A stretch of 32,000 bases of DNA from contig NC_007488.2 of the NCBI RefSeq assembly GCF_000012905.2, forward strand, positions 82,180-114,179, read 5' to 3'. Below the pieces are notes generated by a model. That model was not told the origin of the DNA. It made no database searches and was given only the letters and a program-made list of their open reading frames with translations. Numbering within the stretch: position 1 is the stretch's first letter; the number at the start of each line of letters is the position of its first letter. A program made the position numbers and the translations under genes. The DNA is from Cereibacter sphaeroides 2.4.1. Its GTDB lineage: Bacteria; Pseudomonadota; Alphaproteobacteria; Rhodobacterales; Rhodobacteraceae. Shown here piece after piece: positions 9,543 through 31,642 of this stretch.

Positions 9543-9558
9543 GATCCTGCCGCGCAAG

Positions 9559-9585: not shown

Positions 9586-9591
9586 ATTTCG

Positions 9592-13444: not shown

Positions 13445-13453
13445 GAGAGACGC

Positions 13454-13981: not shown

Positions 13982-14010
13982 TCCCTGTCCGCGCCGGCGA
14001 GGGCCAGAGC

Positions 14011-14140: not shown

Positions 14141-15154
14141 TCAGTAGGCCACGCGCTTGTAGTAGCGCCGCGTGACCAGCGGGTGGTCGCGCATCACTTC
14201 GAGATGGGCGCTCAGACGCTCCATCAGCGTGGCCATCACGGCGGGCGAGATCATCGCGCGCAGCTCGGGCGAGAGCGTCTGCGGGCAGTAGTCGGCGGTC
14301 GAGATCACCGTCAGCCGGTCGGTATATTGCCGCGCGAACTGCGCCACGCGCTCGGCCAGCGGGTCGTAGGCATCCTCGCCGCGGAACAGCACGAGGCTCA
14401 CCCCCGGCTCGATCAGTTCGAGCGGGCCGTGGAAGAAGTCCGACGCATGGACGGGCCGGGTGCGGATCCACTGCATCTCCTCGAGGATGCAGGTCGCGTA
14501 ATAGAGCGCCTCGGGCCACATGTTCCCCGCGCCGGTGAACATGTGATAGTCGGCGCCCGCGATGAGGCGCGCATGATCCTCGGCCTTGGGTTCGAAGGCC
14601 TTCTTGGCCGCGACCAGCGCCGCGGGCACGGTCTGAAGCTCGGCCACCAGCGCATCGTAAGTGTCGATCTCGCCGCGGGCCTTCATGACCGACAGGGCGA
14701 TGAGCAGCGACTGGAGGTAGAAGCTCTCGGACGAGGTGTCATCCTCGGCGAAGTTCACCAGCGCCGGGTTGCCGCCGAGGCCGAGCGGCGTGTCGGCATG
14801 GCCCACCAGCGTGATGATCTTGGCGCCCACTTCCTTCAGCTTCTCGAGCATGGCCACGCTCTCCTTCGTGGCGCCCGAGAGCGAGGGCATCACCACGATG
14901 GACTTGTCGGTGAGATTGGCCGAACCGGTCAGGATCAGCTCCGCCGGATAGTCCTTGAAGGTCGGGAAGCCCGAACGGCGGTGCAGCAGCTGGACGGCGG
15001 GCTCCATCAGATAGGCCACGCCCCCGGTCCCGAGGAAATAGAGGTTGGTCGCGCCCGCCGCGATGGCCGCGCCGATCTCGGCGTCGATCCGGGGCGCGAG
15101 CGCCACGGCGCCCGACTGGATGCGGAGGAAGCGGTCCTCGTTGAAATTCAGCAT
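14141..15154 (-). CDS. Two-SIS-domain protein, fructosamine-6-phosphate deglycase (FrlB/FraB)-like, phosphosugar-binding motif intact
   Basis: 337 aa. FLGTGGVAYL and VVMPSLSGATKES match the SxSGxT phosphate loop known from the GlmS SQSGET motif. The second half has TGAGNMWPEALY and VHASDFFHGPLELIEPG. AAGAGGA Shine-Dalgarno lies before the ATG. Confidence 0.8.
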   Translation of the reverse strand: MLNFNEDRFLRIQSGAVALAPRIDAEIGAAIAAGATNLYFLGTGGVAYLMEPAVQLLHRRSGFPTFKDYPAELILTGSANLTDKSIVVMPSLSGATKESVAMLEKLKEVGAKIITLVGHADTPLGLGGNPALVNFAEDDTSSESFYLQSLLIALSVMKARGEIDTYDALVAELQTVPAALVAAKKAFEPKAEDHARLIAGADYHMFTGAGNMWPEALYYATCILEEMQWIRTRPVHASDFFHGPLELIEPGVSLVLFRGEDAYDPLAERVAQFARQYTDRLTVISTADYCPQTLSPELRAMISPAVMATLMERLSAHLEVMRDHPLVTRRYYKRVAY

Positions 15155-15246
15155 GTCTGATCCTCTTGGTTTCGCCCCGGAGGGCAGGTGTTCGGGGCCC
15201 GGCCGCGGGCTGCGGCAGGGGACAGGAAAGGGAAGGGGCGGCGCGG

Positions 15247-16746
15247 TCAGGCGGTGAGCTCTGCCACGCGGGAGGCCAGCCGCTCGGAGGCCGCCTCGAG
15301 CGCTGCCGACCGCCGGGTCCTCAGCCCGGCATCCGCGGCAAGGCGGGCCTCCATCTCGGCGAGAAGGGCCGAGACCACCTCGGGCGCGGTGCCGCCCGGC
15401 ACGGTGCGCGCCCGCACCGCCTCGACCGGATCCATCCAGCGCCTGAGCCGCTCTTCGGGCAGATCGAAGCTGCGGCCGATCTCGGCTTCGGCCGCCTCGT
15501 TCAGCACCGCGACCGTCAGCTCCTCGGCGCCGCCGCCCGCGGCCAGCACCATCTGCACCGCGCGCCCCACCACATGATGGGCGTCGCGGAACGAGATGCC
15601 GAAATCGCGCACGAGCCCGTCGGCGAGATCCGTCGCGGTCGAGAAATTGGCCTTGCAGCGCGCCAGCAGCTTTTCGGCATCCGGCGTGGCCGTCTCGAAG
15701 ATCAGCCGCAGCAGCGAGAGGCCCGCCTCGAACCGGGCGAAGGCGGGCCAGGCGTCGGCCACCCCCTCGCGCACGCTGTCGAGCCCGATGGAATAGTTCG
15801 ACCCCTTCACCGCCGCGAGAGCGCCCGCCAGCGCCCCGATGCTGCGCCCGGCCTCGGCCCGAAAATATTCGAGCGGCAGCATGTTCTTCTTCTGCGGCAT
15901 GATCGAGGACGTGCCCGCCACCCGGTCGGGGAAGGTCAGCGCGCCGAACTCCCAGGTGGTGAAGACATAGAGATCCTGCGCCACGCGCGAGAACAGCACC
16001 TGCGCGCTGGTGACGGCCCAGAGAAGCTCGGTCACGAAATCGCGCGAGGCCACGGCATCGAGCCCCGGTGCGGCCGGTCCGGCAAAGCCCAGAAGGTCCG
16101 CCGTCTCGTCGCGGTTGATGGCAAAGGAGGTGCCGGCCAGCGCCGCCGACCCGAGCGGGCAGGCGTCGAGCCGGTCGAGCACCGCCGCGAGCCGCTCATG
16201 CTCGCGCTCCATCCCGCGGGCGACGTTGGCGAGATAATAGCCGAAGGTGATGGGCTGCGCGGGCTGGAGGTGGGTGTAGCCCGGCATCACGGTCAGCACA
16301 TGGCGCCCGGCCGCCGCGAGACAGGCGCGGCGGGCCTCTTCCATCGCGGCCAGAAGCGCAAGGCAGGTCTCGCGCGCGGCCATCCGGTCGAGGGTCGAGC
16401 CGATGTCGTTGCGGCTGCGCCCGACATGGAGCCAGCCCGCCACCGCCTTGCCCGCCACCTGCCCGAGCCGGTTCTCGAAGGCGAAATAGCTGTCCTCGAA
16501 CTGCGGATCGAGGTCGATGGCGGCGGGGCCCTCGGCGCGGATCTGCGCGATGCCGCGCAGGATGTCGCGCGCGCAATCGGCCGGGATCAGCCCGCGGGCG
16601 GCCAGCATCGCGGCATGGGCCTCGTTCAGCGCGCACATCCGCTCCAGCGCCGGGGCGTCGAAGCCCTGCATCGGCGGCTCGTAGATGGTGCGGGCCACCT
16701 CGGCCGCGGTGCGTTCCGTCAGGCGGGAGCTCACGGAGTTCTTCAT
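15247..16746 (-). CDS. Argininosuccinate-lyase-family (aspartase/fumarase superfamily) C-N lyase, probably not housekeeping ArgH
   Basis: 499 aa. All three conserved superfamily regions are present: VGRSRNDIGSTL, GYTHLQPAQPITFG and the signature loop GTSSIMPQKKN. It is embedded in an amino-acid ABC importer operon. Confidence 0.85.
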   Translation of the reverse strand: MKNSVSSRLTERTAAEVARTIYEPPMQGFDAPALERMCALNEAHAAMLAARGLIPADCARDILRGIAQIRAEGPAAIDLDPQFEDSYFAFENRLGQVAGKAVAGWLHVGRSRNDIGSTLDRMAARETCLALLAAMEEARRACLAAAGRHVLTVMPGYTHLQPAQPITFGYYLANVARGMEREHERLAAVLDRLDACPLGSAALAGTSFAINRDETADLLGFAGPAAPGLDAVASRDFVTELLWAVTSAQVLFSRVAQDLYVFTTWEFGALTFPDRVAGTSSIMPQKKNMLPLEYFRAEAGRSIGALAGALAAVKGSNYSIGLDSVREGVADAWPAFARFEAGLSLLRLIFETATPDAEKLLARCKANFSTATDLADGLVRDFGISFRDAHHVVGRAVQMVLAAGGGAEELTVAVLNEAAEAEIGRSFDLPEERLRRWMDPVEAVRARTVPGGTAPEVVSALLAEMEARLAADAGLRTRRSAALEAASERLASRVAELTA

Positions 16747-16973
16747 CTGGGATCTTTCCGGTCGGTGAGGGCCAGGGGCAGGGCATCGCGCAAGGCCCCG
16801 GCGGAGGGGAAATCGGTGGGCGAGAGGCGCCGCGGCCCGAGCGCGCGGGCCTCGGCGGGCGTGACGCGGACGCGGGCCATCAGGGCGCGGATCTCCGGAT
16901 CGCGCGGGCGGCCCGCATCGAAGGGCGCGGCGCAGAGCGCCGGAAGGGCCGAGAGAGAGGCGGGCGCCTCCAT
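16743..16973 (-). CDS. Small hypothetical protein (76 aa), translationally coupled between the permease and the lyase
   Basis: The ATG at 16973 lies 3 nt after the permease stop (16976), and its TGA overlaps the lyase ATG (ATGA at 16743-16746). Most third codon positions are G/C, as in neighbouring genes. I recognise no family. Confidence 0.45.
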   Translation of the reverse strand: MEAPASLSALPALCAAPFDAGRPRDPEIRALMARVRVTPAEARALGPRRLSPTDFPSAGALRDALPLALTDRKDPR

Positions 16974-16975
16974 CC

Positions 16976-17707
16976 TCAGGTCCTCACCGAGAGGGCGGCG
17001 TCGATCTCATGCGCCCGGTCCTCGGCCTGCGCCCCGCTCGCGGCGGAATAGGGCTTCAGGAAATGGCGCTCGATGCGCCCGCCCACCAGCGAGATCAGGG
17101 TGCAGAGGGTGAAATAGACCACGAGGATCGAACCGTAGACGAGATAGGCCGGGCTGCCGCCCTGCATGATGGTCGTCTGCTCGATCAGCACCTGGCCCGT
17201 GCGCAGCAGTTCCTGCGCCCCCACCACCGCGCCGAGCGACGTGGCCTGCACGAGCGCGGTCAGAAGCCCCACATAGGGCGGCACGATCACCGGCATCGCC
17301 TGCGGCAGCGTCACGAGGAGGAGCGTCTTCACCGGGCCGAAGCCGAAGGCCGCCGCCGTCTCGCGCTGGCCCCGGCCCACGGAGGCGAGCCCCGCGCGCA
17401 GGATCTGCGCCCCGTTGGCGCCGCCCCAGACCGAGATCGCGAGGCAGCAGGACCAGAACGGATTGAGCCCGAGCCCCGTCATGGGCAGCATGAAATAGAC
17501 GAGCAGCACCGTCACCATCAGCGGCAGGTCGCGCAGCAGCTCGACCAGCGCATAGCTCGCGCGGTTCAGAAGCCGCGGTTTGGCCGTGATGCCCATGGTG
17601 AGGAGGATGGCGCAGAAGGTGCCGCCCATCGCCACGACCGCCGACATCTTCAGCGTCTCGATCAGTCCGCCGAGCAGGAAGACGCGATATTCGTAAAGCA
17701 GGTCCAT
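16976..17707 (-). CDS. Polar amino-acid ABC transporter permease (HisM/GlnP-like)
   Basis: 243 aa, multi-span. It has the EAA-like loop ILRAGLASVGRGQRETAAAFGFG. Confidence 0.85.
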   Translation of the reverse strand: MDLLYEYRVFLLGGLIETLKMSAVVAMGGTFCAILLTMGITAKPRLLNRASYALVELLRDLPLMVTVLLVYFMLPMTGLGLNPFWSCCLAISVWGGANGAQILRAGLASVGRGQRETAAAFGFGPVKTLLLVTLPQAMPVIVPPYVGLLTALVQATSLGAVVGAQELLRTGQVLIEQTTIMQGGSPAYLVYGSILVVYFTLCTLISLVGGRIERHFLKPYSAASGAQAEDRAHEIDAALSVRT

Positions 17708-17711
17708 GGGA

Positions 17712-18380
17712 TCACCGTGACCCGTAGGGCCGGTTGAGGCGCCGTTCCAGCCGGTGCCCCAGCGCCGAGACGCCGAGGATGACGACGAGGTAGATGACGC
17801 AGATCGAGAGGAACATCTCGGTCGAGCGGAAGTCCTGCGCGATCCGGTCGACCGCGACGAAGGTCAGCTCCACGAGGCCGATGGCCTGCAGATAGGCCGA
17901 GTTCTTGATCGTGCCGACCACCGTGTTCAGCGTGGAGGGCAGGGCCGACCGCAGCGCGATGGGCGCCACCACGAGGAGCGCGTGCGGCAGCCGGCGCAGG
18001 CCCAGCGAGGCCGAGGCGTCGTGCATCTCGCGCCCGACCGAGGCCAGACCTGCGCGGAAGCTCTCGATATGGAAGGCGCTGGCCCAGATCGTGAGGGCGA
18101 GCACCCCCGACCAGAAGATCGAGAGCGTGAGCCCGAGGCTCGGCAGGCCGTAGAAGACGAAGAAGATCTGCACGAGATAGGGCGTGCCGCGGATGAACTC
18201 GACATAGCCGCGCACGGCATAGGAGAGCGGGCGGATGCCCGAGACGCGCAGCGCGCAGCCGGCCAGCCCCAGAAGGAGCGAGAAGAGGATCGCGAGCAGG
18301 CTGACCATGAGGGTCATGCCGAGGCCGCGCATGAGGTCGGGGAAGGCCGCGAGGATATAGCCCCAGTCGATGACGGTCAT
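17712..18380 (-). CDS. Polar amino-acid ABC transporter permease (HisQ/GlnP-like)
   Basis: 222 aa, multi-span. It has the EAA-like loop FRAGLASVGREMHDASASLGL. Confidence 0.85.
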   Translation of the reverse strand: MTVIDWGYILAAFPDLMRGLGMTLMVSLLAILFSLLLGLAGCALRVSGIRPLSYAVRGYVEFIRGTPYLVQIFFVFYGLPSLGLTLSIFWSGVLALTIWASAFHIESFRAGLASVGREMHDASASLGLRRLPHALLVVAPIALRSALPSTLNTVVGTIKNSAYLQAIGLVELTFVAVDRIAQDFRSTEMFLSICVIYLVVILGVSALGHRLERRLNRPYGSR

Positions 18381-18409
18381 GGTCGGTCCGGTCCGGCGGG
18401 AGGGAAGGG

Positions 18410-18433
18410 CCGGGAGGCGCGGACGCCTCCCGG
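18410..18433 (-). other. Intercistronic GC stem-loop immediately downstream of the SBP gene
   Basis: CCGGGAGGCG-cgga-CGCCTCCCGG forms a perfect 10-bp stem with a 4-nt loop. It lies 7 nt past the SBP stop (18441) and 30 nt before the next start (18380). Confidence 0.5.
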
Positions 18434-18440
18434 AGCGGGC

Positions 18441-19283
18441 TCAGATCTGCGGCGGCTCTTCGAGGAAGCCGCGCTTCATCACATCGACCACGGCCGGTTC
18501 CTCGACGAACTGCGGGATCACCGTCTCGTAGAAATCGCCCTTGCGCAGCTCGTCGAGCACCGCGTTGACGAAGGTCTGAAGCTCGGTCTCGCCCTTGCGC
18601 ATCCCCACGCCGTTCACGCCGAGGTCGAGCCCTTCCTCGATCACGCGGAGCTTGGGATAGTTGCCGCCGAGCGTGTAGATCAGCCCGCCGTCGCCCACGA
18701 ACCCGTCGGCCCGGCCCTGCATCAGCGCCTGCACCCCGTCGGCGGTGGTGTTGAGCTGCACGATCGAGATGTCGGGGATGTTGGCTTCGAGCCACTTGAT
18801 CTGCGTGGCGCCCTTGACCACCAGCACCGAGCGGCCCTGAAGGTCCGAGAGCTTCTGCACCGGGCTGTCGGCCGGCACCAGCACGTTCGAGGTGCCCCAG
18901 AAATAGATGTTGGAATAGTCGATCACCTCCTGCCGCGCGGCCGTCCGGCCCAGCGTGGCGATGATCAGATCGAGCTTGCCGGCATTCAGCGACGAGATGC
19001 GCGCCTCGCTGGTGACGCAGGAAAGCTCCGCGCCCTCCTCCGAGCCGAAGGCATAGTCGCCGATCTTCCTGGCCATCTCGACCTCGATGCCGCGCGGCTT
19101 GCCGTCGGGGCCGGAGGCGCCGAAGGGCGGGCTGTCGCATTTCACGCCGATGCGGATCTTGCCCGCCTTCTGGATCGCCTCGGGCAGGGGCGGCATGTCC
19201 TGCGCCACGGCGGCGGAGGCGGCCGAGAGCACGAGCGCCCCCGACAGAAGGAGGGAGGCGAGGCGGGTGCCGATCTTGGGCAT
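18441..19283 (-). CDS. Polar amino-acid/opine-type ABC transporter substrate-binding protein (family 3 SBP)
   Basis: In-frame ATG at 19283 within track ORF 18441..20048. The signal peptide is MPKIGTRLASLLLSGALVLSAASAAVAQD. KIRIGVKCDSPPFG and LDLIIATLGRT are typical of HisJ/GlnH-like SBPs. Confidence 0.85.
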   Translation of the reverse strand: MPKIGTRLASLLLSGALVLSAASAAVAQDMPPLPEAIQKAGKIRIGVKCDSPPFGASGPDGKPRGIEVEMARKIGDYAFGSEEGAELSCVTSEARISSLNAGKLDLIIATLGRTAARQEVIDYSNIYFWGTSNVLVPADSPVQKLSDLQGRSVLVVKGATQIKWLEANIPDISIVQLNTTADGVQALMQGRADGFVGDGGLIYTLGGNYPKLRVIEEGLDLGVNGVGMRKGETELQTFVNAVLDELRKGDFYETVIPQFVEEPAVVDVMKRGFLEEPPQI

Positions 19284-19348
19284 GGGTCGACCTTTCTGCT
19301 GGAAGAGTGAGGGGACTGGCCCCGGGTGGGCCCGATCCTTCTGCGGGA

Positions 19349-20101
19349 TCAGTGCAGGATCTGACTGAGGAACAGCCGCGAGCGTTCCTCCTGAGGGTTC
19401 GAGAAGAAGTCTTCGGGCGCCGCGCTCTCGACGATGCGGCCGCGGTCCATGAAGATCACGCGGTCGGCCACCTGACGGGCGAAGCCCATCTCGTGGGTCA
19501 CGCAGATCATGGTCATGCCCTCCTCGGCGAGCGAGACCATCGTGTCGAGCACCTCGCGCACCAGTTCGGGATCGAGCGCCGAGGTCGGCTCGTCGAACAG
19601 CATGATCTCGGGCTCCATGCAGAGCGAGCGCGCGATGGCCACCCGCTGCTGCTGGCCGCCCGAGAGCTGGCCCGGATATTTCCGCGCCTGATCGGGGATG
19701 CGCACCCGCTCGAGATAGCGCATGGCCCGCGCCTCGGCCTCGGCCCGCGGCGTGCCCCGCACCCAGCGCTGCGCGAGGGTGCAGTTCTCGAGGATCGTCA
19801 GATGCGGGTAGAGGTTGAAGTTCTGGAACACCATGCCCACGCGGCGGCGAACCTGCTCGATGTTGCGGCGCTGGTCGTTCACCTCGACCCCGCCCACGCG
19901 GATGGTGCCCGCCTGATGTTCCTCGAGCCGGTTGATGCAGCGGATCATGGTGGATTTGCCCGAACCCGAAGGCCCGCAGACCACGATCTTCTCGCCGGGC
20001 GCGACGGAGAAGGTCACATCCTGCAGCACATGCATCTGGCCGTACCACTTGTTGACACGGTCGAAGGCAATGCCCTGCTCCGCTGCGCCTGTCCCGTCCA
20101 T
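19349..20101 (-). CDS. Polar amino-acid ABC transporter ATP-binding protein (GlnQ/HisP-like)
   Basis: Walker [10 protein letters not shown], signature [15 protein letters not shown], Walker [14 protein letters not shown]-loop CVTHEMGFA. Confidence 0.9.
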
Positions 20102-20135
20102 CCGTCCCCCGTCGTTGCTGGCCTGGTCTGTCTCA

Positions 20136-20150
20136 ACTTGTCTGACAAGT
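20136..20150. promoter_or_regulatory. Perfect 7-1-7 palindrome, candidate GntR/HutC-type operator in the divergent promoter region
   Basis: ACTTGTC-T-GACAAGT lies 35 nt upstream of the ATPase start (20101). HutC-type operators are typically short GT..AC-containing dyads. Confidence 0.45.
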
Positions 20151-20255
20151 GAAACGTTTCTGGTGGGCGTCTGTCAATCTGGATTCTGATGCCCGACGTA
20201 TTTTTCTGCAACAAACTGAAAAGGCGTGACTTATCGCGGCGGATTGGGCAATCAT

Positions 20256-20266
20256 CTTGTCAGACA
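20256..20266. promoter_or_regulatory. Second, shorter copy of the TGTC-N-GACA dyad
   Basis: CTTGTCAGACA contains the TGTC-A-GACA dyad and shares CTTGTC with the 20136 site. It lies ~55 nt upstream of the preferred asparaginase start. Confidence 0.3.
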
Positions 20267-20319
20267 TCATGAAGCAGCCTGACTCGCGCCCCCGTGGCGC
20301 CGGGCGGAAGGAGGAGGAG

Positions 20320-21318: not shown

Positions 21319-21339
21319 ACCGGCAAGGAGTTCAGCCGC

Positions 21340-22065
21340 ATGGAGAAACCGCGGGAAAGCAATGTCGAGCGATTGCGCACGGGCATCCTCGAGATGATCG
21401 AGGAGCTGGGCCTCGGCTTCGGAGACCGGCTGCCGACCGAGAAGGAGATGGTCGAGCGCTTCCAGATCTCGCGCCCCACGCTGCGCGAGGCGCTGAAGCT
21501 GCTGGAGCAGGAGGCGGTGATCGACAGCCATCAGGGCAAGGGCCGGTTCCTCGCCGCGGGCGCGCTCCTCAGCATCGCGCGGCCGATCACCAAGTTCGAG
21601 AGCGTCTCGCAGATGGTGAGCAGCCACGGCTACACGGCCGAGACGCGGCTTCTGGGCTTCTCGGCCGTGCCCGCCGATGCCGTCACGGCCGAGCGGCTGG
21701 CCGTGGCCGAGGGCACGCCCCTCGTCCGCGTCGAGCGGCTGCGCAGCTCGGGCGGCCAGCCGCTGGTCTATTCCGTGGACTGGCTGCCCCGCGCGCTCTT
21801 GGGCGACGGGCTCGAGGGCACGCCGGACTGGAGCGGCTCGCTCGTGGCGCTCCTCGACCGGGTGGGGCGGCGGCCCGTGGCCTCGACCGCGAACGTGCGC
21901 GCCGTCCTTCTGCCCGACGAGGTGAGCGGGCTGCACGGGCTCGAGGAGTTCGGCCCGGCGCTGCTCATCGAGGAGGTCTGCTACGCGGCCTGCGGCACGC
22001 GCGTGATCTATGCGATGGACTATCACCGGGGCTCGGCCTTCTCCTTCAGCTTCGTGCGGAAGTGA
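21340..22065 (+). CDS. GntR-family regulator, HutC subfamily (UTRA effector domain), FrlR/FraR-like
   Basis: 241 aa. The wHTH is LPTEKEMVERFQISRPTLREALKLLEQEAVI. The C-terminal half follows the UTRA pattern (TRLLGFSAVPADAVTAERLAVAEGTPLVRVERLR). Confidence 0.85.
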   Translation: MEKPRESNVERLRTGILEMIEELGLGFGDRLPTEKEMVERFQISRPTLREALKLLEQEAVIDSHQGKGRFLAAGALLSIARPITKFESVSQMVSSHGYTAETRLLGFSAVPADAVTAERLAVAEGTPLVRVERLRSSGGQPLVYSVDWLPRALLGDGLEGTPDWSGSLVALLDRVGRRPVASTANVRAVLLPDEVSGLHGLEEFGPALLIEEVCYAACGTRVIYAMDYHRGSAFSFSFVRK

Positions 22066-23167: not shown

Positions 23168-23225
23168 CGGCCTGCCCTTCCCTTGTCTGTCCGGCCCGAG
23201 GGCGCGGTGGCACCGTTCATGGCCG

Positions 23226-24638: not shown

Positions 24639-24639
24639 C

Positions 24640-25497
24640 TCAGACCTCTCCCGCCGCGATCACCTCGGCATATTTGTCCAGGAGCCACGAGGGGATCGGC
24701 AGCAGCGGCTGCGGAAAGCCGCCCTCGTGCAGGCAGGTGTTGGTGGCCGCATCCGCCGCCCCGCGCAGGGCCTCGGCATCGGCGCGGCGCTCGATGGCCC
24801 AGAGCGCGATGAAGCGCGCGATGAAGCTGTCGCCCGCGCCGCAGGTGTCCACCACCTCGACCCGCCGCGCGCGAACGGGCGTGACGGTGCCGCCCGCCTC
24901 GAGGAAGGCACCGCGGCTGCCGCAGGTCACGACGGTGGCCTGCGCGCCGCGCTCGCGGAAGCGGGCGAGCAGCGGCTCGACCCGCTCGGACGGATCCTCG
25001 GGCCCCGAGGCGAAGACGAGCGGCACGCCCTCGAGATCGAGGAGATCGTGATGCGTCGAGACATCGACCGAAAAGCGCGCGCCGTCGCGGACGAGGGCGC
25101 GCACCAGTTCGGGTGCGCTGTGGGTGCCCAGATGCACCCAGTCGGCGGCCCGCAGCGCCGCGTAACGCGCGCCCTCGGGCACATAGCCCAGCCCCACGCC
25201 CAGATCCTCGAGCAGGAAGCGCCGGTCGCCGTCGCGTTCGAGGAGAAGCGTGACGGCGGTGCTGCCCGGGCGCACCTCGCAATCGTCGGGATCGAGCCCC
25301 GCGCGGCAGAGGGCGGTGCGGACCACATCGCCCTCGGGGTCGGGGCCGACAAGGCCGAAGTAGCGCGTCTTCAGGCCCGCGCGCATCCATTGCACCGCCA
25401 CGTTGAGGGCATTGCCCCCCACCGCCATGCGGTCCTTCGACAGATAGACATCGAGACAATTGTCGCCCACGGCGATCAGGGTCGGGCTGCGGCTCAT
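24640..25497 (-). CDS. PfkB-family ketoamine kinase, fructoselysine 6-kinase (FrlD)-like
   Basis: In-frame ATG at 25497 overlaps the upstream stop (ATGA). IAVGDNCLDVY and GGNALNVAV closely resemble E. coli FrlD (IGDNCVDIY, GGNAVNVAV, recalled from memory). DTCGAGDSFIA is the PfkB signature. Confidence 0.85.
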   Translation of the reverse strand: MSRSPTLIAVGDNCLDVYLSKDRMAVGGNALNVAVQWMRAGLKTRYFGLVGPDPEGDVVRTALCRAGLDPDDCEVRPGSTAVTLLLERDGDRRFLLEDLGVGLGYVPEGARYAALRAADWVHLGTHSAPELVRALVRDGARFSVDVSTHHDLLDLEGVPLVFASGPEDPSERVEPLLARFRERGAQATVVTCGSRGAFLEAGGTVTPVRARRVEVVDTCGAGDSFIARFIALWAIERRADAEALRGAADAATNTCLHEGGFPQPLLPIPSWLLDKYAEVIAAGEV

Positions 25498-26351
25498 GGG
25501 CGGGCCTCCACGGGATCGAGATGCGGCGCGAGCGCCGTGAGATGGCGGGTCCAGGCCGCCACCGGATCGAGGGCATAGGAACCGTCGCCGAAGGGCTCGA
25601 AGGAGAGCGCGCCGCGATAGCCCGCCGCCGCGAGATCGGCGAGGATCCGGGCGAGCGGCAGCGTGCCCTCGCCCCAGACGAGATGGCCCGCCGGGCGGCC
25701 ATCCACGAGATGCACATGGGCGAGCCTGTCGCCGAAGAGGCGCGCGTAATCGGCCACGCTGTCGCCCGCGCAGGCCATGGCGACCGTGTCGAGCACCACA
25801 TCCACCGTGTCCGCGCCCACCATCTCCAGCAGGCGCGCCGTATCGGCGGCGCTGTGGGCGATGTTGCTCTCCACCCGCTGGAGCGGCTCGAGCAGGCAGC
25901 GGAGCCCGAGGCCCGCCGCATGGCCCGCGATCAGGCGCAGCGCCTCGGCCGAGCGGTCCCAGGCGCGCGCGGCGGGCTCGCTCTCGTAGCCGCGGCCGGG
26001 GGTCAGGAACAGGTGCCGCGCGCCCAGCTCGGCCGCGATGTCGGCCGCGCGGCGGAAGCGGTCGATGCTGGCCGCGCGGAAGGCATCGTCGCCCGAGGCG
26101 ATGTTGATCGGATAGACCACCTGCTCGGGCGTGAGGCAGCGCACCGACAGGCCCTCGCCCGACAGCACGCATTTCACCTCCGCCACGTCGCGGTCGGTCG
26201 AGTGGAAGAGGTCGAGATGCGGCGCCACGCCCCAGAGCTCGATCTCGGTGAAGCCGAAGCCGCGCATCCGGCGCGCCACCTCGGCCAGCGGGAAGTGCTG
26301 GAAGGCGAAGTTCGCGCCGATCGACTGGCGGGCGGAGAGACGGGCGCTCAT
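25494..26351 (-). CDS. Xylose-isomerase-like TIM-barrel sugar isomerase/epimerase (FrlC-like family)
   Basis: 285 aa. TEIELWG, ARHLFLTPG, LLEPL and HVHLVD form the usual pattern of metal-binding strands in this fold. The gene is overlapped at both ends by its neighbours (ATGA). Confidence 0.75.
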   Translation of the reverse strand: MSARLSARQSIGANFAFQHFPLAEVARRMRGFGFTEIELWGVAPHLDLFHSTDRDVAEVKCVLSGEGLSVRCLTPEQVVYPINIASGDDAFRAASIDRFRRAADIAAELGARHLFLTPGRGYESEPAARAWDRSAEALRLIAGHAAGLGLRCLLEPLQRVESNIAHSAADTARLLEMVGADTVDVVLDTVAMACAGDSVADYARLFGDRLAHVHLVDGRPAGHLVWGEGTLPLARILADLAAAGYRGALSFEPFGDGSYALDPVAAWTRHLTALAPHLDPVEARP

Positions 26352-27193
26352 TTCGCCATCCCTTCGGTCAGGCCGCGGATGAAGTATCGCTGGGTCAGGA
26401 AGAAGATGATGACGATGGGCAGCGCCGAGAGCGTCATGGCGGCGAAGACCTGCGCGAAGTCGGTGCCCTGCTTCGACATCAGCGAGGTGAGGCCCACGGG
26501 CAGCGTCTGCACGCCGGGACTGTTGGTGAAGATCATGGCGAAGAGATATTCGTTCCAGGCAAAGAGGATATGGAGCACGACGCAGGAGACGACGATCGGC
26601 CGGCAGAGCGGCAGGATGATCCTGCGGTAGATCTGGCCGGGGCTTGCGCCGTCCATCATGGCGGCCTCGTCGAGGTCGCGCGGCAGGTCGAGCATGTAGG
26701 CGCGGATCAGGAAGGTGGTGAAGGGCACGCGGAAGGCGGTGTAGAGGATGATGAGCGCCCAGTGCGTGTCGTAGAGCCCGAGCGACTGGAGCATCCGCAC
26801 CAGCGGCACGAGGGCGACGGTCGGGCTCAGCATCATGCCGCCGAGGACGAAGGCGGTGATGAGGGGCTTTGCCGGCATCGCCGTCCGCGTGAGCCCATAG
26901 GCCGCGCGCGCCGAGATCAGCACGGTCGCCACCGTCGAGACCAGCGTGACGAGGAGGCTCGAGACCATGTAGCCCTGCACCCCGCGCCAGGCCGAGAAGT
27001 AGTTCTCGAGCGACCAGTCCTGCGGCAGGGCGAAGGGCTGGTCGAAGATCTGGCTGTTCGACTTGAAGCCGCCGAGCCCCATCCAGAGCAGCGGATAAAG
27101 CACGACGACGCCCACGGCGAGGAGGAAGGCCCAGAGGAAGGCCTGCCCCATCACGGGCCAGAAGCCGCGGGCGGAGTGGGTCGCGCCGCTCAT
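26348..27193 (-). CDS. CUT1 sugar ABC transporter permease (MalG-like)
   Basis: In-frame ATG at 27193 overlaps the upstream stop (ATGA). The EAA loop is DLDEAAMMDGASPGQIYRRIILPL. The upstream part of track ORF 26348..28180 is a shadow frame over the neighbouring permease gene. Confidence 0.85.
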   Translation of the reverse strand: MSGATHSARGFWPVMGQAFLWAFLLAVGVVVLYPLLWMGLGGFKSNSQIFDQPFALPQDWSLENYFSAWRGVQGYMVSSLLVTLVSTVATVLISARAAYGLTRTAMPAKPLITAFVLGGMMLSPTVALVPLVRMLQSLGLYDTHWALIILYTAFRVPFTTFLIRAYMLDLPRDLDEAAMMDGASPGQIYRRIILPLCRPIVVSCVVLHILFAWNEYLFAMIFTNSPGVQTLPVGLTSLMSKQGTDFAQVFAAMTLSALPIVIIFFLTQRYFIRGLTEGMAK

Positions 27194-28155
27194 GCGAGGA
27201 CCCTCCGCCGCCGGGTGTACCAGAGCTGCAGGATGCCCGTGAGCATCGTCACCGCGAAGACGACCGAACCGATGGCCGCGGCATAGCCCATGTCGTTCTG
27301 GTTGAAGCCCTGCTCGTAGAGCCATGTGCCCAGCACCTGGCTCGAATTGTTCGGCCCGCCGCCGGTCATGACCATGACCTCGTTGAAGACCTGAAAGGCG
27401 CCGGTCACGGTCACGATGATCATCATGCCGGTCATCTCGCGCGTGAGGGGGAAGGTGATGCTCCAGAGCTGGCGGAGCGGGCCCGCCCCGTCCATCCGCG
27501 CCGCGTCGTAAAGCTCCTGCGGGATCTTCTGGATCGCGATGGTGAAGAGGAGCGTCGAATAGCCGAAGCCCTGCCACTGGCTCATGGCGATGATGGCATA
27601 GATCGCCGTCCGCGGATCGCCGAGCCAGACATGCGACCATTCCTGCAGGTTCAGGGCCTTCAGCAGCCCGTCGAGGATGCCGATGTCGGGCTGATAGATG
27701 AAATAGAAGAGGAGCCCGGTGACGGTCGTCGAGATGGCCGAGGGCACGAAATAGAGCGCCCGCCAGAAGTTGCGCCAGCGTTCCGAGGACAGGCCCTCGA
27801 CGATGGCGGCGAGGCAGAAGGCCGCGAAGACCTGGAAGAGGATGGAGAGCACCGCATAGGCGCCGTTGTTCCAGAGCGCGCGGCCCACCACCGGGTCCTG
27901 CGTGAGCCTGCGGTAATTGTCGAGCCCGACCTGCGTCACCTCGCCGGTGAAGATGTCCTGGTTCGTGGTGCTGACGAAGAAGTTGTTGACGATCGGGTAA
28001 TAGACGAACCAGCCCACAAGGACGAGCGCCACGACGATCCAGCGCAGCGCCAGCAGCCGGGAGAGGAGGGGGCGCAGCCGCGGCCCCCTCCCTGCCCCGT
28101 GGGCGGGGCCGCTGAGGGCGACCCCGCTCTTTCCGATGTCCGCGGACAAGCTCAT
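27190..28155 (-). CDS. CUT1 sugar ABC transporter permease (MalF-like)
   Basis: In-frame ATG at 28155 overlaps the SBP stop by 1 nt (TGATG). The EAA loop is ELYDAARMDGAGPLRQLWSITFPL. Confidence 0.85.
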   Translation of the reverse strand: MSLSADIGKSGVALSGPAHGAGRGPRLRPLLSRLLALRWIVVALVLVGWFVYYPIVNNFFVSTTNQDIFTGEVTQVGLDNYRRLTQDPVVGRALWNNGAYAVLSILFQVFAAFCLAAIVEGLSSERWRNFWRALYFVPSAISTTVTGLLFYFIYQPDIGILDGLLKALNLQEWSHVWLGDPRTAIYAIIAMSQWQGFGYSTLLFTIAIQKIPQELYDAARMDGAGPLRQLWSITFPLTREMTGMMIIVTVTGAFQVFNEVMVMTGGGPNNSSQVLGTWLYEQGFNQNDMGYAAAIGSVVFAVTMLTGILQLWYTRRRRVLA

Positions 28156-29465
28156 CACTTGGCCGCGGCGGCGGCCGCACGGACTTCGGCCACGACCTCC
28201 TCGGCCGTGAGGTTGCCGCCCGCGAAGGCCTGCAGGTTCGACAGCCACGCCGCGGCGACGCGCGGATGGTTCACCGTATCCAGCCACTGCATCAGGTAGG
28301 AGGCCTCGGCGATATCCTCGAGGCCGCCCACCACGGCCGGGCTCATCTGCGCCGGATCCGCGCCGCCCACCACGGCGCTCGGCTGGCCGTAGGGCGGGGC
28401 CGACAGCACCTTCGCATTGGCCTGACTCGTCACGAACTTCATGAAATCGAGCGCGAGCGGCACATTCTCGGAGGCCGAGGAGATCATGTAGCCCTCGGGC
28501 GCGCCTTCGAGCGCCTTCGGATCGCCCTTGGCATCCTTCGGCGCCGGCAGCGGGAAGAAGCCGAACTCCTCGGGCTTGAGCTTGGTCTTGTCCGAGGCCG
28601 AATTGTCGAACTCGATGATCTCCTGATAATACATCGCCGACTTGCCGTCGCTCAGCTCCTGGATCGCATTCTGATAGGAGATGCCGTTCATGCCCGCGCC
28701 GATGGTGCAGCGGTCGGCGATGGCCTTGAACTGCTCGAGCGAGGCGACATAGCCCGGGTCTTCATAGTCCGCGGTCGCCGGGTCGAAATCGCGCTCCAGC
28801 ACGTCCTTCGGCACGTTGTAGGCCAGCAGCTGGCCGAGATAATGGACGGCGACCCAGGGCTCCTTGTTGCCGATCGAGATCGGCGTGATGCCCGCCTCCT
28901 TGATCGTGTCGCAGGCCGCCAGCATGTCCTCGAGCGTCTCGGGCTCCGACAGGCCCAGCTTCTCGAAGATGGGCTTGCTGTAGCCCATGAATTTCGCATC
29001 GAGATAGAGCGGGATGCCATAATGCTTGCCGTCGTAGACGAAGGCATCGACCGCGGCCGGGGCGAAGGTCTTGCCCCAGTCCGTGTCCGGTCCGATCACC
29101 GGCGTCAGATCCACCGCCCGCTTGCCGCGGATGAAGTTGCCGCCCCAGGTGCCGGTCCAGGAGAAGAAGACATCCGGGATCGAGTTCGAGGCGACCAGCG
29201 TCTTGGTCTTGCCCTTCACGCTGTCATCGTCTTCCTGGATGAGCTCGATTGTGACGCCGGGATGCTGCGCCTCGTATTCCTGCGCCAGCTCGGTGAAATA
29301 GGGCGCGAGGCGCTGCATCCCGAACTTGGTCAGCACCTTGATCGTGCCCTCGTATTCGACCGGGGCCGCGGGATCGGCGACCGCCGTCTGGGCCGCGGCG
29401 GCGCCCGCTCCCAGCGCCGACAGTGCGGCGACGATGGCTGTCATGGACTGCAAGGACCGTTTCAT
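28155..29465 (-). CDS. CUT1 sugar-type ABC transporter substrate-binding protein (family 1 SBP)
   Basis: 436 aa. The Sec signal peptide is MKRSLQSMTAIVAALSALGAGAAAAQ. The length and composition are typical of MalE-like family-1 SBPs. Confidence 0.85.
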   Translation of the reverse strand: MKRSLQSMTAIVAALSALGAGAAAAQTAVADPAAPVEYEGTIKVLTKFGMQRLAPYFTELAQEYEAQHPGVTIELIQEDDDSVKGKTKTLVASNSIPDVFFSWTGTWGGNFIRGKRAVDLTPVIGPDTDWGKTFAPAAVDAFVYDGKHYGIPLYLDAKFMGYSKPIFEKLGLSEPETLEDMLAACDTIKEAGITPISIGNKEPWVAVHYLGQLLAYNVPKDVLERDFDPATADYEDPGYVASLEQFKAIADRCTIGAGMNGISYQNAIQELSDGKSAMYYQEIIEFDNSASDKTKLKPEEFGFFPLPAPKDAKGDPKALEGAPEGYMISSASENVPLALDFMKFVTSQANAKVLSAPPYGQPSAVVGGADPAQMSPAVVGGLEDIAEASYLMQWLDTVNHPRVAAAWLSNLQAFAGGNLTAEEVVAEVRAAAAAAK

Positions 29466-29510
29466 CTCTCTCTCCTGTTGTCGGGCTTCTTGTTGGTCTT
29501 GGGTTGGGCG

Positions 29511-30449
29511 TCAGTCGCCGGGGCGCGGGGCGGGCGGCCCCAGATGGGCCTCGACCCGCTCGAGCAGCGCCGCGAGGATCACCGGGGTCGCCAGCGCCCG
29601 CAGGCGGGGGCCAAGGCCCGGCAGCTCGGCCGCGGCCGCATCCACGATGCGCAGACGGTCGGTGTAGCGGCCCACGAACCGCTCGACGCGGAGGGTCAGC
29701 GGGCGCAGGGCATCCTCGCCCTTCACGAGAAGGAGGCTCACCCCCGGCTCGATCAGTTCGAGCGTGCCGTGGAAGAAATCGGCGGCATGGACCGGGCGCG
29801 CGGGCAGGCGCAGCCCGCGCTCCAGCGCCGACAGCGCGAAGCGGTGCGCCACGGGCCAGGCCCCGCCCGCGCCGGTGACGATCTGATAGGGCTCGGCCCG
29901 CAGGCGCGCGGCCAGCCGGGCGGCCTCGGGCTCGAAGGCCGCTTTCGCAGGCCCGAGATCGCGGGGCAGGGCGGCCAGCCCCTCGCGGACCGCGTCGGGC
30001 GCCGCGATCTCTCCCCGCGCCGCGAGCAGATGGACAGCCCAGGCCAGCGCCTGCAGGCAAAGGGCCTCGGGCGCCATCGGCGCGAGCGTCCAGACCGCGG
30101 CCCCCCGGGCGGCAAGCGTCTCCGCCAGATCCGGGTCGGGCGCCGAAAGCAGCACCAGCGTGCCGGGCGCGCGCTCCGGCGGCAGGCCGATCCGCGCCTC
30201 CTCCGAGGCAAGCGCGAAAGAGGCCAGCCGCGAGGTCCGGCCCACCAGATCGAGCGCGGGTTGCGCCAGAAGCTGCGCCTCTCCCCCGCCCACCAGCACG
30301 AGCCTTTCCACCGACAGGGCCGGGATCCAGCGCGCCGCCGTCTCGGCCGCCGCCAGCGCCGCTTCGAGATCCCGCCGATGGCCCGCCGCGTCAAACGGCC
30401 CGGCAAGGGCAGTGGCGCGAGACAGGGACGAGCCGGCGGGAAGATTCAT
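29511..30449 (-). CDS. FrlB-like two-SIS-domain paralogue with a degenerate N-terminal phosphosugar-binding loop
   Basis: The C-terminal half is clearly homologous to the 14141..15154 protein: TGAGGAWPVAHRF and VHAADFFHGTLELIEPGVSLLLVKGEDA against VHASDFFHGPLELIEPGVSLVLFRGEDA. The N-terminal half has LLSAPDPDLAE where the paralogue has SLSGATKES. I prefer ATG 30449, because the track start at 30473 is a TTG inside an A-run. Confidence 0.65.
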   Translation of the reverse strand: MNLPAGSSLSRATALAGPFDAAGHRRDLEAALAAAETAARWIPALSVERLVLVGGGEAQLLAQPALDLVGRTSRLASFALASEEARIGLPPERAPGTLVLLSAPDPDLAETLAARGAAVWTLAPMAPEALCLQALAWAVHLLAARGEIAAPDAVREGLAALPRDLGPAKAAFEPEAARLAARLRAEPYQIVTGAGGAWPVAHRFALSALERGLRLPARPVHAADFFHGTLELIEPGVSLLLVKGEDALRPLTLRVERFVGRYTDRLRIVDAAAAELPGLGPRLRALATPVILAALLERVEAHLGPPAPRPGD

Positions 30450-30462
30450 GAGACCGATCTCA
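30449..30462. promoter_or_regulatory. LacI-family-type 14-bp operator (copy 1), overlapping the SIS gene start codon
   Basis: TGAGACCGATCTCA is a dyad centred on CG, with half-sites TGAGACC and TGAGATC (6/7). This is the TG..A.CG.T..CA architecture typical of LacI/GalR operators. Confidence 0.5.
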
Positions 30463-30471
30463 CAGCGAGGC

Positions 30472-30515
30472 AAAAAAGGATCGGTCCGGCCGCCGCAGCG
30501 ACTGAGAGACCGATC
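30472..30515 (-). terminator. Terminator/attenuator-like hairpin plus U6 tract on the minus-strand transcript, between lacI-like gene and catabolic operon
   Basis: On the minus strand GATCGGTC (30515-30508) pairs with GACCGATC (30485-30478), followed by C and TTTTTT (30477-30472). The stem is only 8 bp and the loop is ~22 nt. The arms are copies of the operator core. Confidence 0.3.
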
Positions 30516-30518
30516 TCA
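30505..30518. promoter_or_regulatory. LacI-family-type operator (copy 2)
   Basis: AGAGACCGATCTCA is identical to copy 1 at 13 of 14 positions. It abuts or overlaps the tandem TATGAG elements on the minus strand. Confidence 0.5.
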
Positions 30519-30551
30519 TACTCATACTGCACGCGAGACTCGATCTGGCAA
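30515..30551 (-). promoter_or_regulatory. Candidate sigma70-type promoter for the SIS-SBP-permease-kinase operon
   Basis: On the minus strand: TTGCCA (30551-30546), a 19-nt spacer, TATGAG (30526-30521), and a tandem second TATGAG (30520-30515). The spacer is longer than optimal. A degenerate third operator-like copy, GAGACTCGATCT (30535-30546), fills part of the spacer and abuts the -35. Confidence 0.25.
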
Positions 30552-30577
30552 GAGATTCTTTGACGGCGTGCGAGAGG

Positions 30578-31642
30578 TCAGGCGCGGCCGAAATCGACCC
30601 GCGCCACCGAGCCGCGCGCGATGAGGCGGGTGGGAAAGCGCACCTGGCGGGCCGGCTGGTCGCTGCCCTCGATGCGCTCGAGCAGCATCTTCGTGGCCAG
30701 AGGTCCGATCTGGCCCACGGGCTGCGCCACGACGGTGATCTGCGGATCGGTGAAGGTGGCGAGGTCGAAGTCGTCGAAACCGATCAGCGACACGTCGCGC
30801 GGCACGGCAAGCCCCATCGAGCGCAGCGCGAGCAGCGCCCCCGTCGTCATCAGACTGTCCACGGTGAAAAGCGCGGTCGGCCGCTCGGGCCGGCTGAACA
30901 GGCGGATCGTGGCGTCGATGGCATGTTCGACCGTCGATTGCGACACGGCGATGAGCCGGTCTTCGGCCGGTAGCCCCGCCTCGGCCAGCGCGCGCAGATA
31001 GCCCTCGCGCCGCTGCCGGGCGGTGGCGATACGCGAGGCGTCGTGGATCAGCGCGATCCGCCGGTGCCCGTTCGCGATCAGCAGGCCGATGGCCTCGTGC
31101 GCGCCGCCCTCGTTGTCGACCGTCACGCTGTCGCACTCCATCCCCGGCAGCTCGCGGTCGATCAGCACGAGCGGCACGCCCTCGCGCACCAGCCGCGCCA
31201 GATGGCGGTTGTCGCCCTCGGAGGCGGGGGCCACGATCATGCCGCGCACATTCAGCGCGCGCAGATTGTCGAGCAGGCCCTGCTCCTGCGCGAGGCTCTC
31301 GTCGCTGCTGGCGATGAGCAGACTGTGCCGGCTCCGGCGCAGAGCCGCATCGATGTCATGGGCCACGCGGGCGAAAAACGGGTTCTGGATGTCGCCGGGC
31401 ACGAAGCCCACGATGGGCATCTGCCCCTGCCGCAGCGCCTGCGCGATCCGGTTGCCGCGGTAGCCCAGCCGCTCGGCCGCCTCCTGCACCCGCCGCGCGG
31501 CCTCGTCGCCCACATAGCCGTAGCCGTTCAGCGCCCGCGCCGCCGTCGCCCGGGACACCTGCGCGGCCGCGGCGACGTCCTTGACCGTCACCGCGCGCTT
31601 CACGGCCCGGGGCGGCCCGTCTTCTGCCACTGGACTCTCCAT
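30578..31642 (-). CDS. LacI-family transcriptional regulator
   Basis: 354 aa. The HTH is VTVKDVAAAAQVSRATAARALNGYGYVGDEAARRVQEAAERLGYRGNRIAQAL, followed by a periplasmic-binding-protein-like sugar-binding core. GTG at 31630, preceded by GGAGAG, is an alternative start. Confidence 0.9.
   Translation of the reverse strand: MESPVAEDGPPRAVKRAVTVKDVAAAAQVSRATAARALNGYGYVGDEAARRVQEAAERLGYRGNRIAQALRQGQMPIVGFVPGDIQNPFFARVAHDIDAALRRSRHSLLIASSDESLAQEQGLLDNLRALNVRGMIVAPASEGDNRHLARLVREGVPLVLIDRELPGMECDSVTVDNEGGAHEAIGLLIANGHRRIALIHDASRIATARQRREGYLRALAEAGLPAEDRLIAVSQSTVEHAIDATIRLFSRPERPTALFTVDSLMTTGALLALRSMGLAVPRDVSLIGFDDFDLATFTDPQITVVAQPVGQIGPLATKMLLERIEGSDQPARQVRFPTRLIARGSVARVDFGRA

Follow-up and report, generated by a model that had tools for sequence, protein, structure and literature searches.

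A gene island on a plasmid of Cereibacter sphaeroides 2.4.1 as a probable fusion of two catabolic modules for ketoamines

The subject of this analysis is a 17.5-kb gene island on a plasmid of Cereibacter sphaeroides 2.4.1, which occupies positions 14141–31642 of a 32,000-nucleotide stretch of DNA (contig NC_007488.2, positions 82,180 to 114,179; hereafter the window, from whose first letter coordinates are counted). The island is probably made of two fused catabolic modules, both for sugar-amine conjugates of the ketoamine (Amadori) type. Module 1 (14141–22065) resembles the fructose-asparagine pathway of Salmonella and appears to be an undescribed variant of it, with a fumarate-releasing C–N lyase added, and module 2 (22046–31642) is an operon that also occurs by itself in other genomes. 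In Cereibacter the two modules are predicted to be interdependent, sharing the kinase and the epimerase of module 2 and a deglycase of module 1, SIS2.

Gene content and module structure

Gene calling by codon-position analysis guided by third-position G+C content (GC3), with inspection of start sites, recovered 18 of 18 open reading frames (ORFs) of the island at the same coordinates as an earlier note on this DNA, and scans with Pfam and NCBIfam models reproduced its family assignments together with its overlap geometry. That note had divided the genes into three tightly packed units: a minus-strand set from a LacI-type regulator to a MalK-like ATPase (unit a), a plus-strand pair encoding an asparaginase homologue and a GntR regulator (unit b), and a minus-strand operon from a polar-amino-acid-type ATP-binding cassette (ABC) ATPase to an intact SIS protein (unit c). 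The genes and their strands stand, but comparison with related loci reveals that units b and c form one conserved module, whereas unit a is a separate, widespread operon. The island is better read as two modules than as three units, with units b and c making up module 1 and unit a module 2. The G+C content is ~70% all along, with no compositional break at the island. Over its 17.5 kb, identity is 100% to 114-kb plasmids of 2.4.1-type strains and 96–98% to the plasmids of strains KD131 and IL106.

As a block, module 1 has the order GntR, asparaginase, (TIM barrel), ATPase, periplasmic binding protein, permease, permease, MmgE/PrpD, lyase, SIS, PfkB. This block is conserved in at least eight genera of alphaproteobacteria; it is found in Agrobacterium sp. 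33MFTa1.1, Salipiger bermudensis, Tagaea, Rhizobium sp. CF080, and Microvirga, in one metagenome-assembled genome (MAG), and in Rhodobacter capsulatus and Cereibacter, and every orthologue of the island lyase with at least 60% identity lies within it. Elsewhere, module 1 has FrlC- and FrlD-like genes of its own; the TIM barrel and the kinase of the Agrobacterium block likewise find their best matches in FrlC and FrlD. The whole Cereibacter island encodes just one kinase and one TIM barrel. Plasmid matches in Cupriavidus and Roseomonas were rejected as module-1 loci on inspection.

Module 2 runs along the minus strand from a LacI-family regulator (30578–31642; LacI and Peripla_BP_3; RefSeq start 31630) through SIS1, a degenerate paralogue of FrlB (29511–30449), the periplasmic binding protein (28155–29465; SBP_bac_1 and SBP_bac_8) and two permeases (27190–28155 and 26348–27193; BPD_transp_1) of a CUT1 ABC importer, an FrlC-like TIM-barrel epimerase (25494–26351; AP_endonuc_2), an FrlD-like PfkB kinase (24640–25497; PfkB), and a DAO-family flavin adenine dinucleotide (FAD) amine oxidoreductase that is a core gene of the module (23226–24638; DAO, 5e-61), to the MalK-type ATPase of the importer (22046–23167; ABC_tran, OB_MalK, and TOBE_2). 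The genes for the binding protein and the first permease overlap by 1 nt (TGATG), the permease/permease, permease/TIM-barrel, and TIM-barrel/kinase junctions are ATGA overlaps of 4 nt each, and the kinase and FAD genes are separated by a gap of 1 nt. At its far end the MalK gene is convergent with the GntR gene of module 1, with an overlap of 20 nt.

The complete set of LacI, SIS, CUT1 binding protein, two permeases, TIM barrel, PfkB, DAO flavoenzyme, and MalK stands alone in Shinella, with an intact 337-aa SIS gene and MalK as the last gene, and in Paracoccus AK26, also with an intact SIS gene, which there comes last, MalK being penultimate. The core of the module, from the binding-protein gene to the FAD gene, is found on several Rhizobium, Agrobacterium, and Ensifer replicons. 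The three units of the earlier note co-occur only in part: units b and c lie together in every related locus examined, but among these loci unit a adjoins them only in Cereibacter and, in reduced form, in R. capsulatus. On the Shinella plasmid, module 2 is adjoined (16600–25900 of the retrieved locus) by another candidate sugar-amine or opine cluster, which comprises two FAD oxidoreductases, a TIM barrel, a second SIS, a GntR, an ornithine cyclodeaminase, and a polar-amino-acid ABC system.

Enzymes of module 1

The asparaginase homologue (20320–21318, plus strand; Asparaginase N and C domains) is of type II, has no signal peptide, and is predicted to be cytoplasmic, with its nucleophile Thr at about residue 19. 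It keeps Thr12, Ser58, Thr89, and Lys162 (numbering of Escherichia coli asparaginase II, EcAII). The three residues that we take to be the holders of the substrate α-amino group are all replaced: Gln59 by Phe and Asp90 by Gly in 8/8 orthologues, and Glu283, also in 8/8, mostly by Ser. In EcAII, Gln59 and Glu283 lie along the cavity of the active site, and Asp90 is part of the invariant Thr89-Lys162-Asp90 triad, where its mutation leaves binding greatly impaired (PMC6667453). An asparaginase homologue in the opine-catabolic region of pTiEU6 (9971–10984 of the retrieved locus) also has Gly in place of Asp90; it lies near an MmgE/PrpD gene (16140–17462), and the region carries hydantoinase/oxoprolinase genes as well. 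We take pTiEU6 to be a succinamopine-type Ti plasmid, although its record does not state the type; succinamopine is an N-α-substituted asparagine. Because all three α-amino-binding residues are replaced, the signal peptide is absent, and pTiEU6 provides this parallel, we argue for a predicted amidase that would act on an N-α-substituted asparagine such as fructose-asparagine. The parallel that the earlier note drew between the asparaginase homologue and GntR/UTRA regulator and FraE and FraR of Salmonella holds, and a conjugate of an amide amino acid, as that note had suggested, is the best guess for one substrate.

The lyase (15247–16746, minus strand; Lyase_1 and ASL_C2) is named argH in RefSeq, and it passes the cut-off of the TIGR00838 argH equivalog model (342.1 bits against 279.5). 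Thermus ArgH is its top match in the PDB and EDDS lyase of Chelativorans (508 aa; 6G3D–I and 6RX8) the second, at a bit score of ~210 that reflects low identity; 6G3H and 6RX8 are structures of EDDS lyase (PMC6973171). With 6G3D and 6RX8 the island protein aligns over residues 39–496 of 499, including a C-terminal extension as in EDDS lyase, and like that enzyme it is ~40 residues longer than ArgH. The fumarate-side and catalytic motifs SRND, GYTHLQ, and GTSSIMPQKKN are intact, the loop with the catalytic Ser included. On the amine side, Asp290 and Tyr320 of the EDDS lyase pocket, an Asp and Tyr pair common to ArgH and EDDS lyase, are replaced in the island by Leu and Ile; the protein reads KKNML and NYSIG where genuine ArgH sequences in the same alignment read KKNPD and YN(R/K)D. 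Every lyase found beside SIS and PfkB genes has Leu or Phe and Ile at these positions, with the signature KKN[MP][LF] ... NYSI[GC]LD. This pocket resembles that of the engineered EDDS lyase variant D290M/Y320M (PMC6973171). Orthologues with at least 54% identity always adjoin SIS and PfkB genes, lying between these and an ABC importer, and an arginine-biosynthetic context was not seen among them. Genuine ArgH identity was rejected on the pocket residues and the gene context. Of the earlier description as an ArgH-like lyase, the family, Lyase_1, stands, but the protein is better described as EDDS-lyase-like with an altered amine pocket; the RefSeq names argH and, for the MalK-type ATPase, UgpC look like over-annotation by equivalog models.

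Relatives of the lyase occur in two further settings. In a second type of cluster, DeoR, short-chain dehydrogenase/reductase (SDR), lyase, SIS, and PfkB genes lie together; MmgE/PrpD and an ABC importer are present in some cases and absent in others, and there is no asparaginase gene. This type is seen on conjugative plasmids of Bradyrhizobium SSUT18 and A. vitis and in Granulosicoccus; the rhizobial examples (Bradyrhizobium and A. vitis) lie beside trb/tra conjugation and quorum-sensing genes, a typical place for opine catabolism. The SDR may resemble MocC/Mas1, a link for which a tblastn search returned generic SDRs only. More distant lyases (40–50% identity, with KKNPV and His or Asn at position 320) often lie in minimal clusters of LysR, binding protein, permease, permease, lyase, and ATPase genes in Pseudomonas, Bosea, Methylobacterium, and others. 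By gene content these minimal clusters look like an uncharacterized import-and-cleave system for an N-substituted aspartate, and such a pairing of importer and lyase looks like the ancestral unit.

The neighbor of the lyase gene in 2.4.1 is a 76-aa ORF (16743–16973, minus strand), which overlaps its start by 4 nt. In KD131 and IL106 a full MmgE/PrpD gene of 457–460 aa lies in this place, between permease and lyase, and comparison with KD131 by blastn and translation reveals that in 2.4.1 two internal deletions have collapsed the 457-aa gene to 76 in-frame codons. The ORF listed in the earlier note is present, but it is a gene remnant. The best PDB match of the full protein is iminodisuccinate (IDS) epimerase (2HP0/2HP3; 1e-39, ~140 bits), an enzyme that in Agrobacterium tumefaciens BY6 acts together with a C–N lyase, and MmgE/PrpD is present in all module-1 loci except those of the 2.4.1 lineage and R. 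capsulatus. Strain IL106 has suffered elsewhere in the island: deletions of 551 bp and 128 bp (window 24163–24714 and 25195–25323) remove most of the kinase together with the flavoenzyme N-terminus and leave a chimeric ORF, a natural knock-out of the shared kinase. The island of KD131 is intact apart from SIS1. Because of these strain-specific deletions, the island is dispensable under some conditions.

We propose the following route for module 1. With expression controlled by the GntR/UTRA regulator through two TTGTCnGACAA operators, the polar-amino-acid-type ABC system would import an N-α-(1-deoxyketosyl)-asparagine or -aspartate, for which fructose-asparagine is the simplest candidate. The cytoplasmic asparaginase homologue, its α-amino pocket opened, would deamidate this compound to the aspartate conjugate, from which the EDDS-lyase-like enzyme would take off the aspartate skeleton as fumarate; in intact strains the IDS-epimerase-like MmgE/PrpD protein would assist, probably by epimerizing the conjugate. 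The FrlD-like kinase and SIS2 would convert the sugar-amine part to glucose-6-phosphate and ammonia or an amine. The order of these steps may be flexible, with the lyase acting before or after phosphorylation, or with SIS2 cleaving the aspartate conjugate directly as FraB does.

Shared enzymes, importers, and control regions

The kinase of the island is 61–66% identical to module-2 kinases and 36–40% identical to module-1 kinases, and the TIM barrel is 60–76% identical to its module-2 homologues and 39–44% identical to those of module 1; both are of the module-2 type. The best NCBIfam models are fructoselysine 6-kinase (FrlD) for the kinase, fructoselysine-6-phosphate deglycase (FrlB) for SIS2, and fructoselysine 3-epimerase (FrlC) for the TIM barrel, with scores of 116.5, 79.7, and 127.8 bits against equivalog cut-offs of 247, 430, and 305. 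These matches bear out the frl/fra-type parts that the earlier note had recognized, and clustering of the kinase and SIS proteins with ribokinase or with GlmS/AgaS-type proteins was not seen. Lacking both a kinase and an epimerase, the Cereibacter module 1 would have to use those of module 2. The same sharing is apparent in R. capsulatus, where plasmid pRCB133 carries a full module 1 minus MmgE/PrpD and, alongside it, only the LacI, TIM-barrel, and kinase genes of module 2, without CUT1 importer, flavoenzyme, MalK, or SIS1. That R. capsulatus retains exactly the module-2 genes needed by module 1 points to selection for the shared arrangement.

SIS2 (14141–15154, minus strand; Pfam SIS) is a predicted ketoamine-6-phosphate deglycase of the FrlB type. 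Its PDB matches are 2A3N (4e-59), Salmonella FrlB 8GLR (3e-58), B. subtilis FrlB (6e-30), and FraB (4e-19). The S-x-S-G-x-T-x-E loop and the Glu...16...His pair (LEEMQW...FFHG) are kept, and all conserved active-site residues, with those of a study of Salmonella FrlB as the reference (PMC10285752), are present. The protein is 86% identical both to the module-1 SIS of R. capsulatus and to the module-2 SIS of Paracoccus AK26, which indicates that one type of deglycase serves either module.

SIS1 has no Pfam SIS match, and its similarity to the FrlB model is confined to the C-terminal half. SAPDPD stands in the position of the S-x-S-G-x-T phosphate loop, an Arg takes the place of the catalytic Glu, and the protein has lost ~21 residues internally as well as the C-terminal tail. 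Homologues in two other Cereibacter species have the same lesions, and the C-terminal half, including the His, is well conserved. Between C. sphaeroides strains, SIS1 has a dN/dS of 0.21–0.30 and no indels, its neighbors ranging from 0.03 to 0.3. A neutral pseudogene is not supported by these values, by the lack of indels, and by conservation in three Cereibacter species. From its residues, SIS1 is predicted to be a conserved, catalytically dead pseudo-enzyme, leaving SIS2 as the sole intact deglycase of the island, and for this reason module 2 would have to use SIS2. The earlier note had counted both SIS proteins as FrlB-like; SIS2 is intact, but the SIS of unit a is degenerate in its catalytic residues. 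SIS1 may be a non-catalytic partner of SIS2. At the DNA level the two genes share a 150-bp stretch at 80% identity (14312–14460 and ~29650–29800), and one public assembly contains a protein with the N-terminus of SIS2 and the C-terminus of SIS1, either a recombinant or an assembly chimera.

The importer of module 1 consists of an ATPase (19349–20101; ABC_tran), a periplasmic binding protein with a signal-peptide-like N-terminus (18441–19283; SBP_bac_3), and two permeases of the polar-amino-acid type (17712–18380 and 16976–17707; BPD_transp_1), all on the minus strand and in an order that is kept in module-1 loci. No Dcu-family ORF was found in the island by Pfam scans; the transport genes of the island are those of its two ABC systems. 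The PDB matches of the CUT1 binding protein are oligosaccharide binders, with MotA absent among them, and the SBP_bac_3 protein has only a weak match to SocA (5L9O; 5e-13), ranked below those to many amino-acid binders. On these searches, MotA and SocA were rejected as identities for the two proteins. The flavoenzyme has TIGR03329 as its closest curated model, below cut-off, and its PDB matches are only glycine oxidases, sarcosine oxidases, and NikD; with no amadoriase structure among them, an amadoriase identity was rejected. The link that the earlier note had drawn to the amadoriase, SocA, and MotA of Agrobacterium falls with these results.

The candidate operators were found by reading the sequence; an automatic search of the intergenic regions for inverted repeats gave nothing useful. 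The divergent region between the asparaginase and ATPase genes (20102–20319) contains the perfect palindrome CTTGTCTGACAAG and a near-copy, giving the motif TTGTCnGACAA at 20137–20149 and 20256–20268. With 0–1 mismatch, the motif recurs in the equivalent intergenic regions of seven other genomes, namely those of R. capsulatus, KD131, Salipiger, Tagaea, Agrobacterium 33MFTa1.1, Microvirga, and a MAG. The putative ligand of these two candidate operators is the GntR/UTRA (HutC-type) regulator of module 1 (21340–22065, plus strand; GntR and UTRA), which is of the FraR/FrlR class and is conserved beside the asparaginase gene. Upstream of SIS1, the LacI-type palindrome TGAGATCGGTCTCA is present in two copies (30449–30462 and 30505–30518); chance alone would give 0.3 matches in the window, and 3 are found. 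In Paracoccus AK26 and Shinella, copies with one mismatch lie between the LacI gene and the gene that opens the operon. We infer that the two copies upstream of SIS1 are the sites bound by the LacI-family protein.

Under LacI control through the two TGAGATCGGTCTCA operators, module 2 would import a second ketoamine by the CUT1 system with its own MalK-type ATPase, and it would supply an amine-oxidizing flavoenzyme of the DAO type, the FrlC-like epimerase, and the FrlD-like kinase.

Rfam and tRNA scans were empty, and a scan for promoters and terminators did no better than on shuffled sequence. Upstream of the island, window positions 1–14000 contain unrelated catabolic genes, including a GntR/FCD regulator, a 3-hydroxyacyl-CoA dehydrogenase with a BKACE protein, a Liv-type ABC system, several SDRs, an alpha/beta hydrolase, a LysR, and an acyl-CoA-dehydrogenase-like protein with an SDR and a flavin reductase.

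Alternative readings, known relatives, and significance

Several points weigh against the reading of the island as two fused, interdependent ketoamine modules. Module 1 needs a kinase from the LacI-controlled operon, and co-regulation of the two has to be assumed. The frl-type matches all fall under the NCBIfam equivalog cut-offs. Should SIS2 act in the manner of FraB and cleave 6-phospho-fructose-aspartate directly, no obvious role would be left for the lyase. The substrates, the order of the steps, the reactions, that of the lyase among them, and the regulation are read from sequence. Lastly, the island is eroded, 2.4.1 having lost MmgE/PrpD and IL106 the kinase and the N-terminus of the flavoenzyme, and it may be only partly functional here.

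An extension of the two-module reading, which we put forward tentatively and consider doubtful, is an alphaproteobacterial Amadori logic in which the carbon skeleton is stripped from the nitrogen first and both modules converge on free fructosamine. A “fructosyl-aspartate lyase” in module 1 would release fumarate and the DAO flavoenzyme of module 2 a keto acid, and one shared set of kinase, epimerase, and deglycase would convert fructosamine to glucose-6-phosphate and ammonia, with SIS1 as a non-catalytic partner subunit that would provide the His half of a heterodimeric active site. If true, this scheme would explain why a C–N-cleaving enzyme is added to the frl core in each module, why the same deglycase (86% identity) is found in either, and why the modules could fuse and share parts.

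Module 1 could instead be a plain Fra-type pathway, with the lyase acting only afterwards, as a dedicated aspartase-like enzyme or on a side product, and not on the sugar conjugate. Such a route has been demonstrated in Salmonella (PMC12359202; PMC4072780), SIS2 has the full FrlB/FraB catalytic set, and the bulky hydrophobic replacements of the pocket Asp and Tyr could shrink the lyase pocket to fit ammonia. The lyase, however, is the most constant partner of SIS and PfkB and is retained in clusters without an asparaginase gene; it descends from enzymes that cleave N-substituted aspartates and not from aspartase, its pairing with an IDS-epimerase-like protein points to an N-substituted aspartate substrate, and related lyases occur with an importer and no other enzyme. 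We regard this explanation as unlikely, if serious. Less probable again is that the 2.4.1 island is a decaying relic with little or no function, in which the sharing reflects gene loss after two operons landed side by side. The reduction of MmgE/PrpD to a 76-aa ORF, the degeneration of SIS1, the IL106 deletions that destroy kinase and flavoenzyme, and the absence of a reported phenotype in the literature searched all fit a relic. The remaining genes are nevertheless intact, with dN/dS of 0.03–0.3 between strains and no frameshifts, translational coupling is kept even over the remnant ORF, the operators are conserved, and gene retention in R. capsulatus follows precisely what module 1 needs.

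It is also rather improbable that the modules target opines of plant tumors or plant secretions, that is, enzymatically made sugar-aspartate or sugar-asparagine conjugates of the mannityl or santhopine type, in place of spontaneous Amadori products. Related lyase-SIS-PfkB clusters do lie on conjugative plasmids (Agrobacterium, A. vitis, and Bradyrhizobium) beside tra/trb and quorum-sensing genes, one cluster type has an SDR in place of the asparaginase gene, and the opine-catabolic region of pTiEU6 shares the altered asparaginase homologue and an MmgE/PrpD gene. Against this, we know of no sugar-type opine on aspartate or asparagine, the host range extends to free-living phototrophs and marine bacteria (Cereibacter, Rhodobacter, Salipiger, Tagaea, and Granulosicoccus), and neither binding protein is MotA- or SocA-like; the SDR search was uninformative. 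That the lyase is, as RefSeq has it, a genuine second argininosuccinate lyase among coincidental sugar-amine neighbors seems to us very improbable: the TIGR00838 score (342 vs 279.5 bits) and the top PDB match to Thermus ArgH favor it, but the pocket residues are Leu and Ile, the chain has the extra length of EDDS lyase, and orthologues at or above 54% identity always keep company with SIS and PfkB genes.

Within the two-module reading, the nearest described relative of module 1 is fraR-fraBDAE of Salmonella enterica, which likewise has a GntR-family regulator, an asparaginase homologue, a PfkB kinase, and an SIS protein with the Glu/His pair (PMC4072780, PMC12359202), and whose substrate class, glycated asparagine, is the one predicted here. 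The island differs in having an ABC importer in place of the Dcu-type FraA, an asparaginase homologue without a signal peptide where FraE is periplasmic, and a deglycase much nearer FrlB (3e-58) than FraB (4e-19), and it adds an FrlC-like epimerase, the EDDS-lyase-like C–N lyase, and the IDS-epimerase-like protein. Module 2 has the same order of deglycase, binding protein, permease, permease, and kinase as frlBONMD of B. subtilis, and the proteins of this and the E. coli frlABCD-frlR system, FrlD, FrlC, and FrlB, are the best curated matches, if below the equivalog cut-offs. In contrast to the Frl systems, the kinase operon has a LacI gene and LacI-type operators where those systems have the GntR-family FrlR, module 2 adds the DAO flavoenzyme and a dedicated MalK ATPase, the in-operon copy of the deglycase is predicted to be dead in Cereibacter, and an FrlA-type permease is lacking.

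The ~500-aa ArgH-like lyase paired with MmgE/PrpD is shared with EDDS lyase of Chelativorans sp. BNC1 and the IDS pair of A. tumefaciens BY6, two systems that both cleave N-substituted aspartates to fumarate and an amine. Identity to these enzymes is low (~210 bits for the lyase and ~140 bits for the MmgE/PrpD protein), Asp290 and Tyr320 of the EDDS lyase pocket correspond to Leu/Phe and Ile, and the context is sugar-amine catabolism where that of the two known systems is aminopolycarboxylate degradation. With the moc/soc systems of Agrobacterium the island has in common a plasmid location, ABC import of a sugar-amino-acid conjugate, and the logic of kinase and deglycase (mocDE; PMC8087989). 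The window, however, has no MocC-type reductase, no MotA- or SocA-like binding protein, and no amadoriase-like flavoenzyme, and moc/soc has no counterpart of the island asparaginase or lyase.

Full-text literature searches returned no work linking a deglycase with an argininosuccinate-lyase-type lyase and no account of this locus, and searches on fructose-asparagine in alphaproteobacteria and on moc/soc returned nothing relevant to it. The earlier note had not recognized the combination as a described system. The families of the parts and the overall frl/fra-like purpose are known; the combination of lyase, epimerase, and altered asparaginase appears undescribed, as does the fused two-operon architecture with shared parts.

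Plant material and food are rich in fructose-asparagine and related Amadori compounds. To our knowledge, the pathways worked out for their use are limited to Fra, Frl, and Gfr in enterobacteria and Frl in Bacillus. If the two-module reading is correct, an asparaginase for N-substituted asparagine followed by a fumarate-releasing C–N lyase would constitute a new enzymatic route, and the EDDS-lyase branch of the aspartase/fumarase superfamily would gain a natural substrate class. Enzymes of this branch are being engineered by biocatalysis groups for just such pockets. A systematic misannotation as argH would be corrected as well. The island would also serve as a natural example of operon fusion and division of labor, for which 2.4.1, IL106, R. 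capsulatus, and Paracoccus AK26 provide the natural knock-outs.

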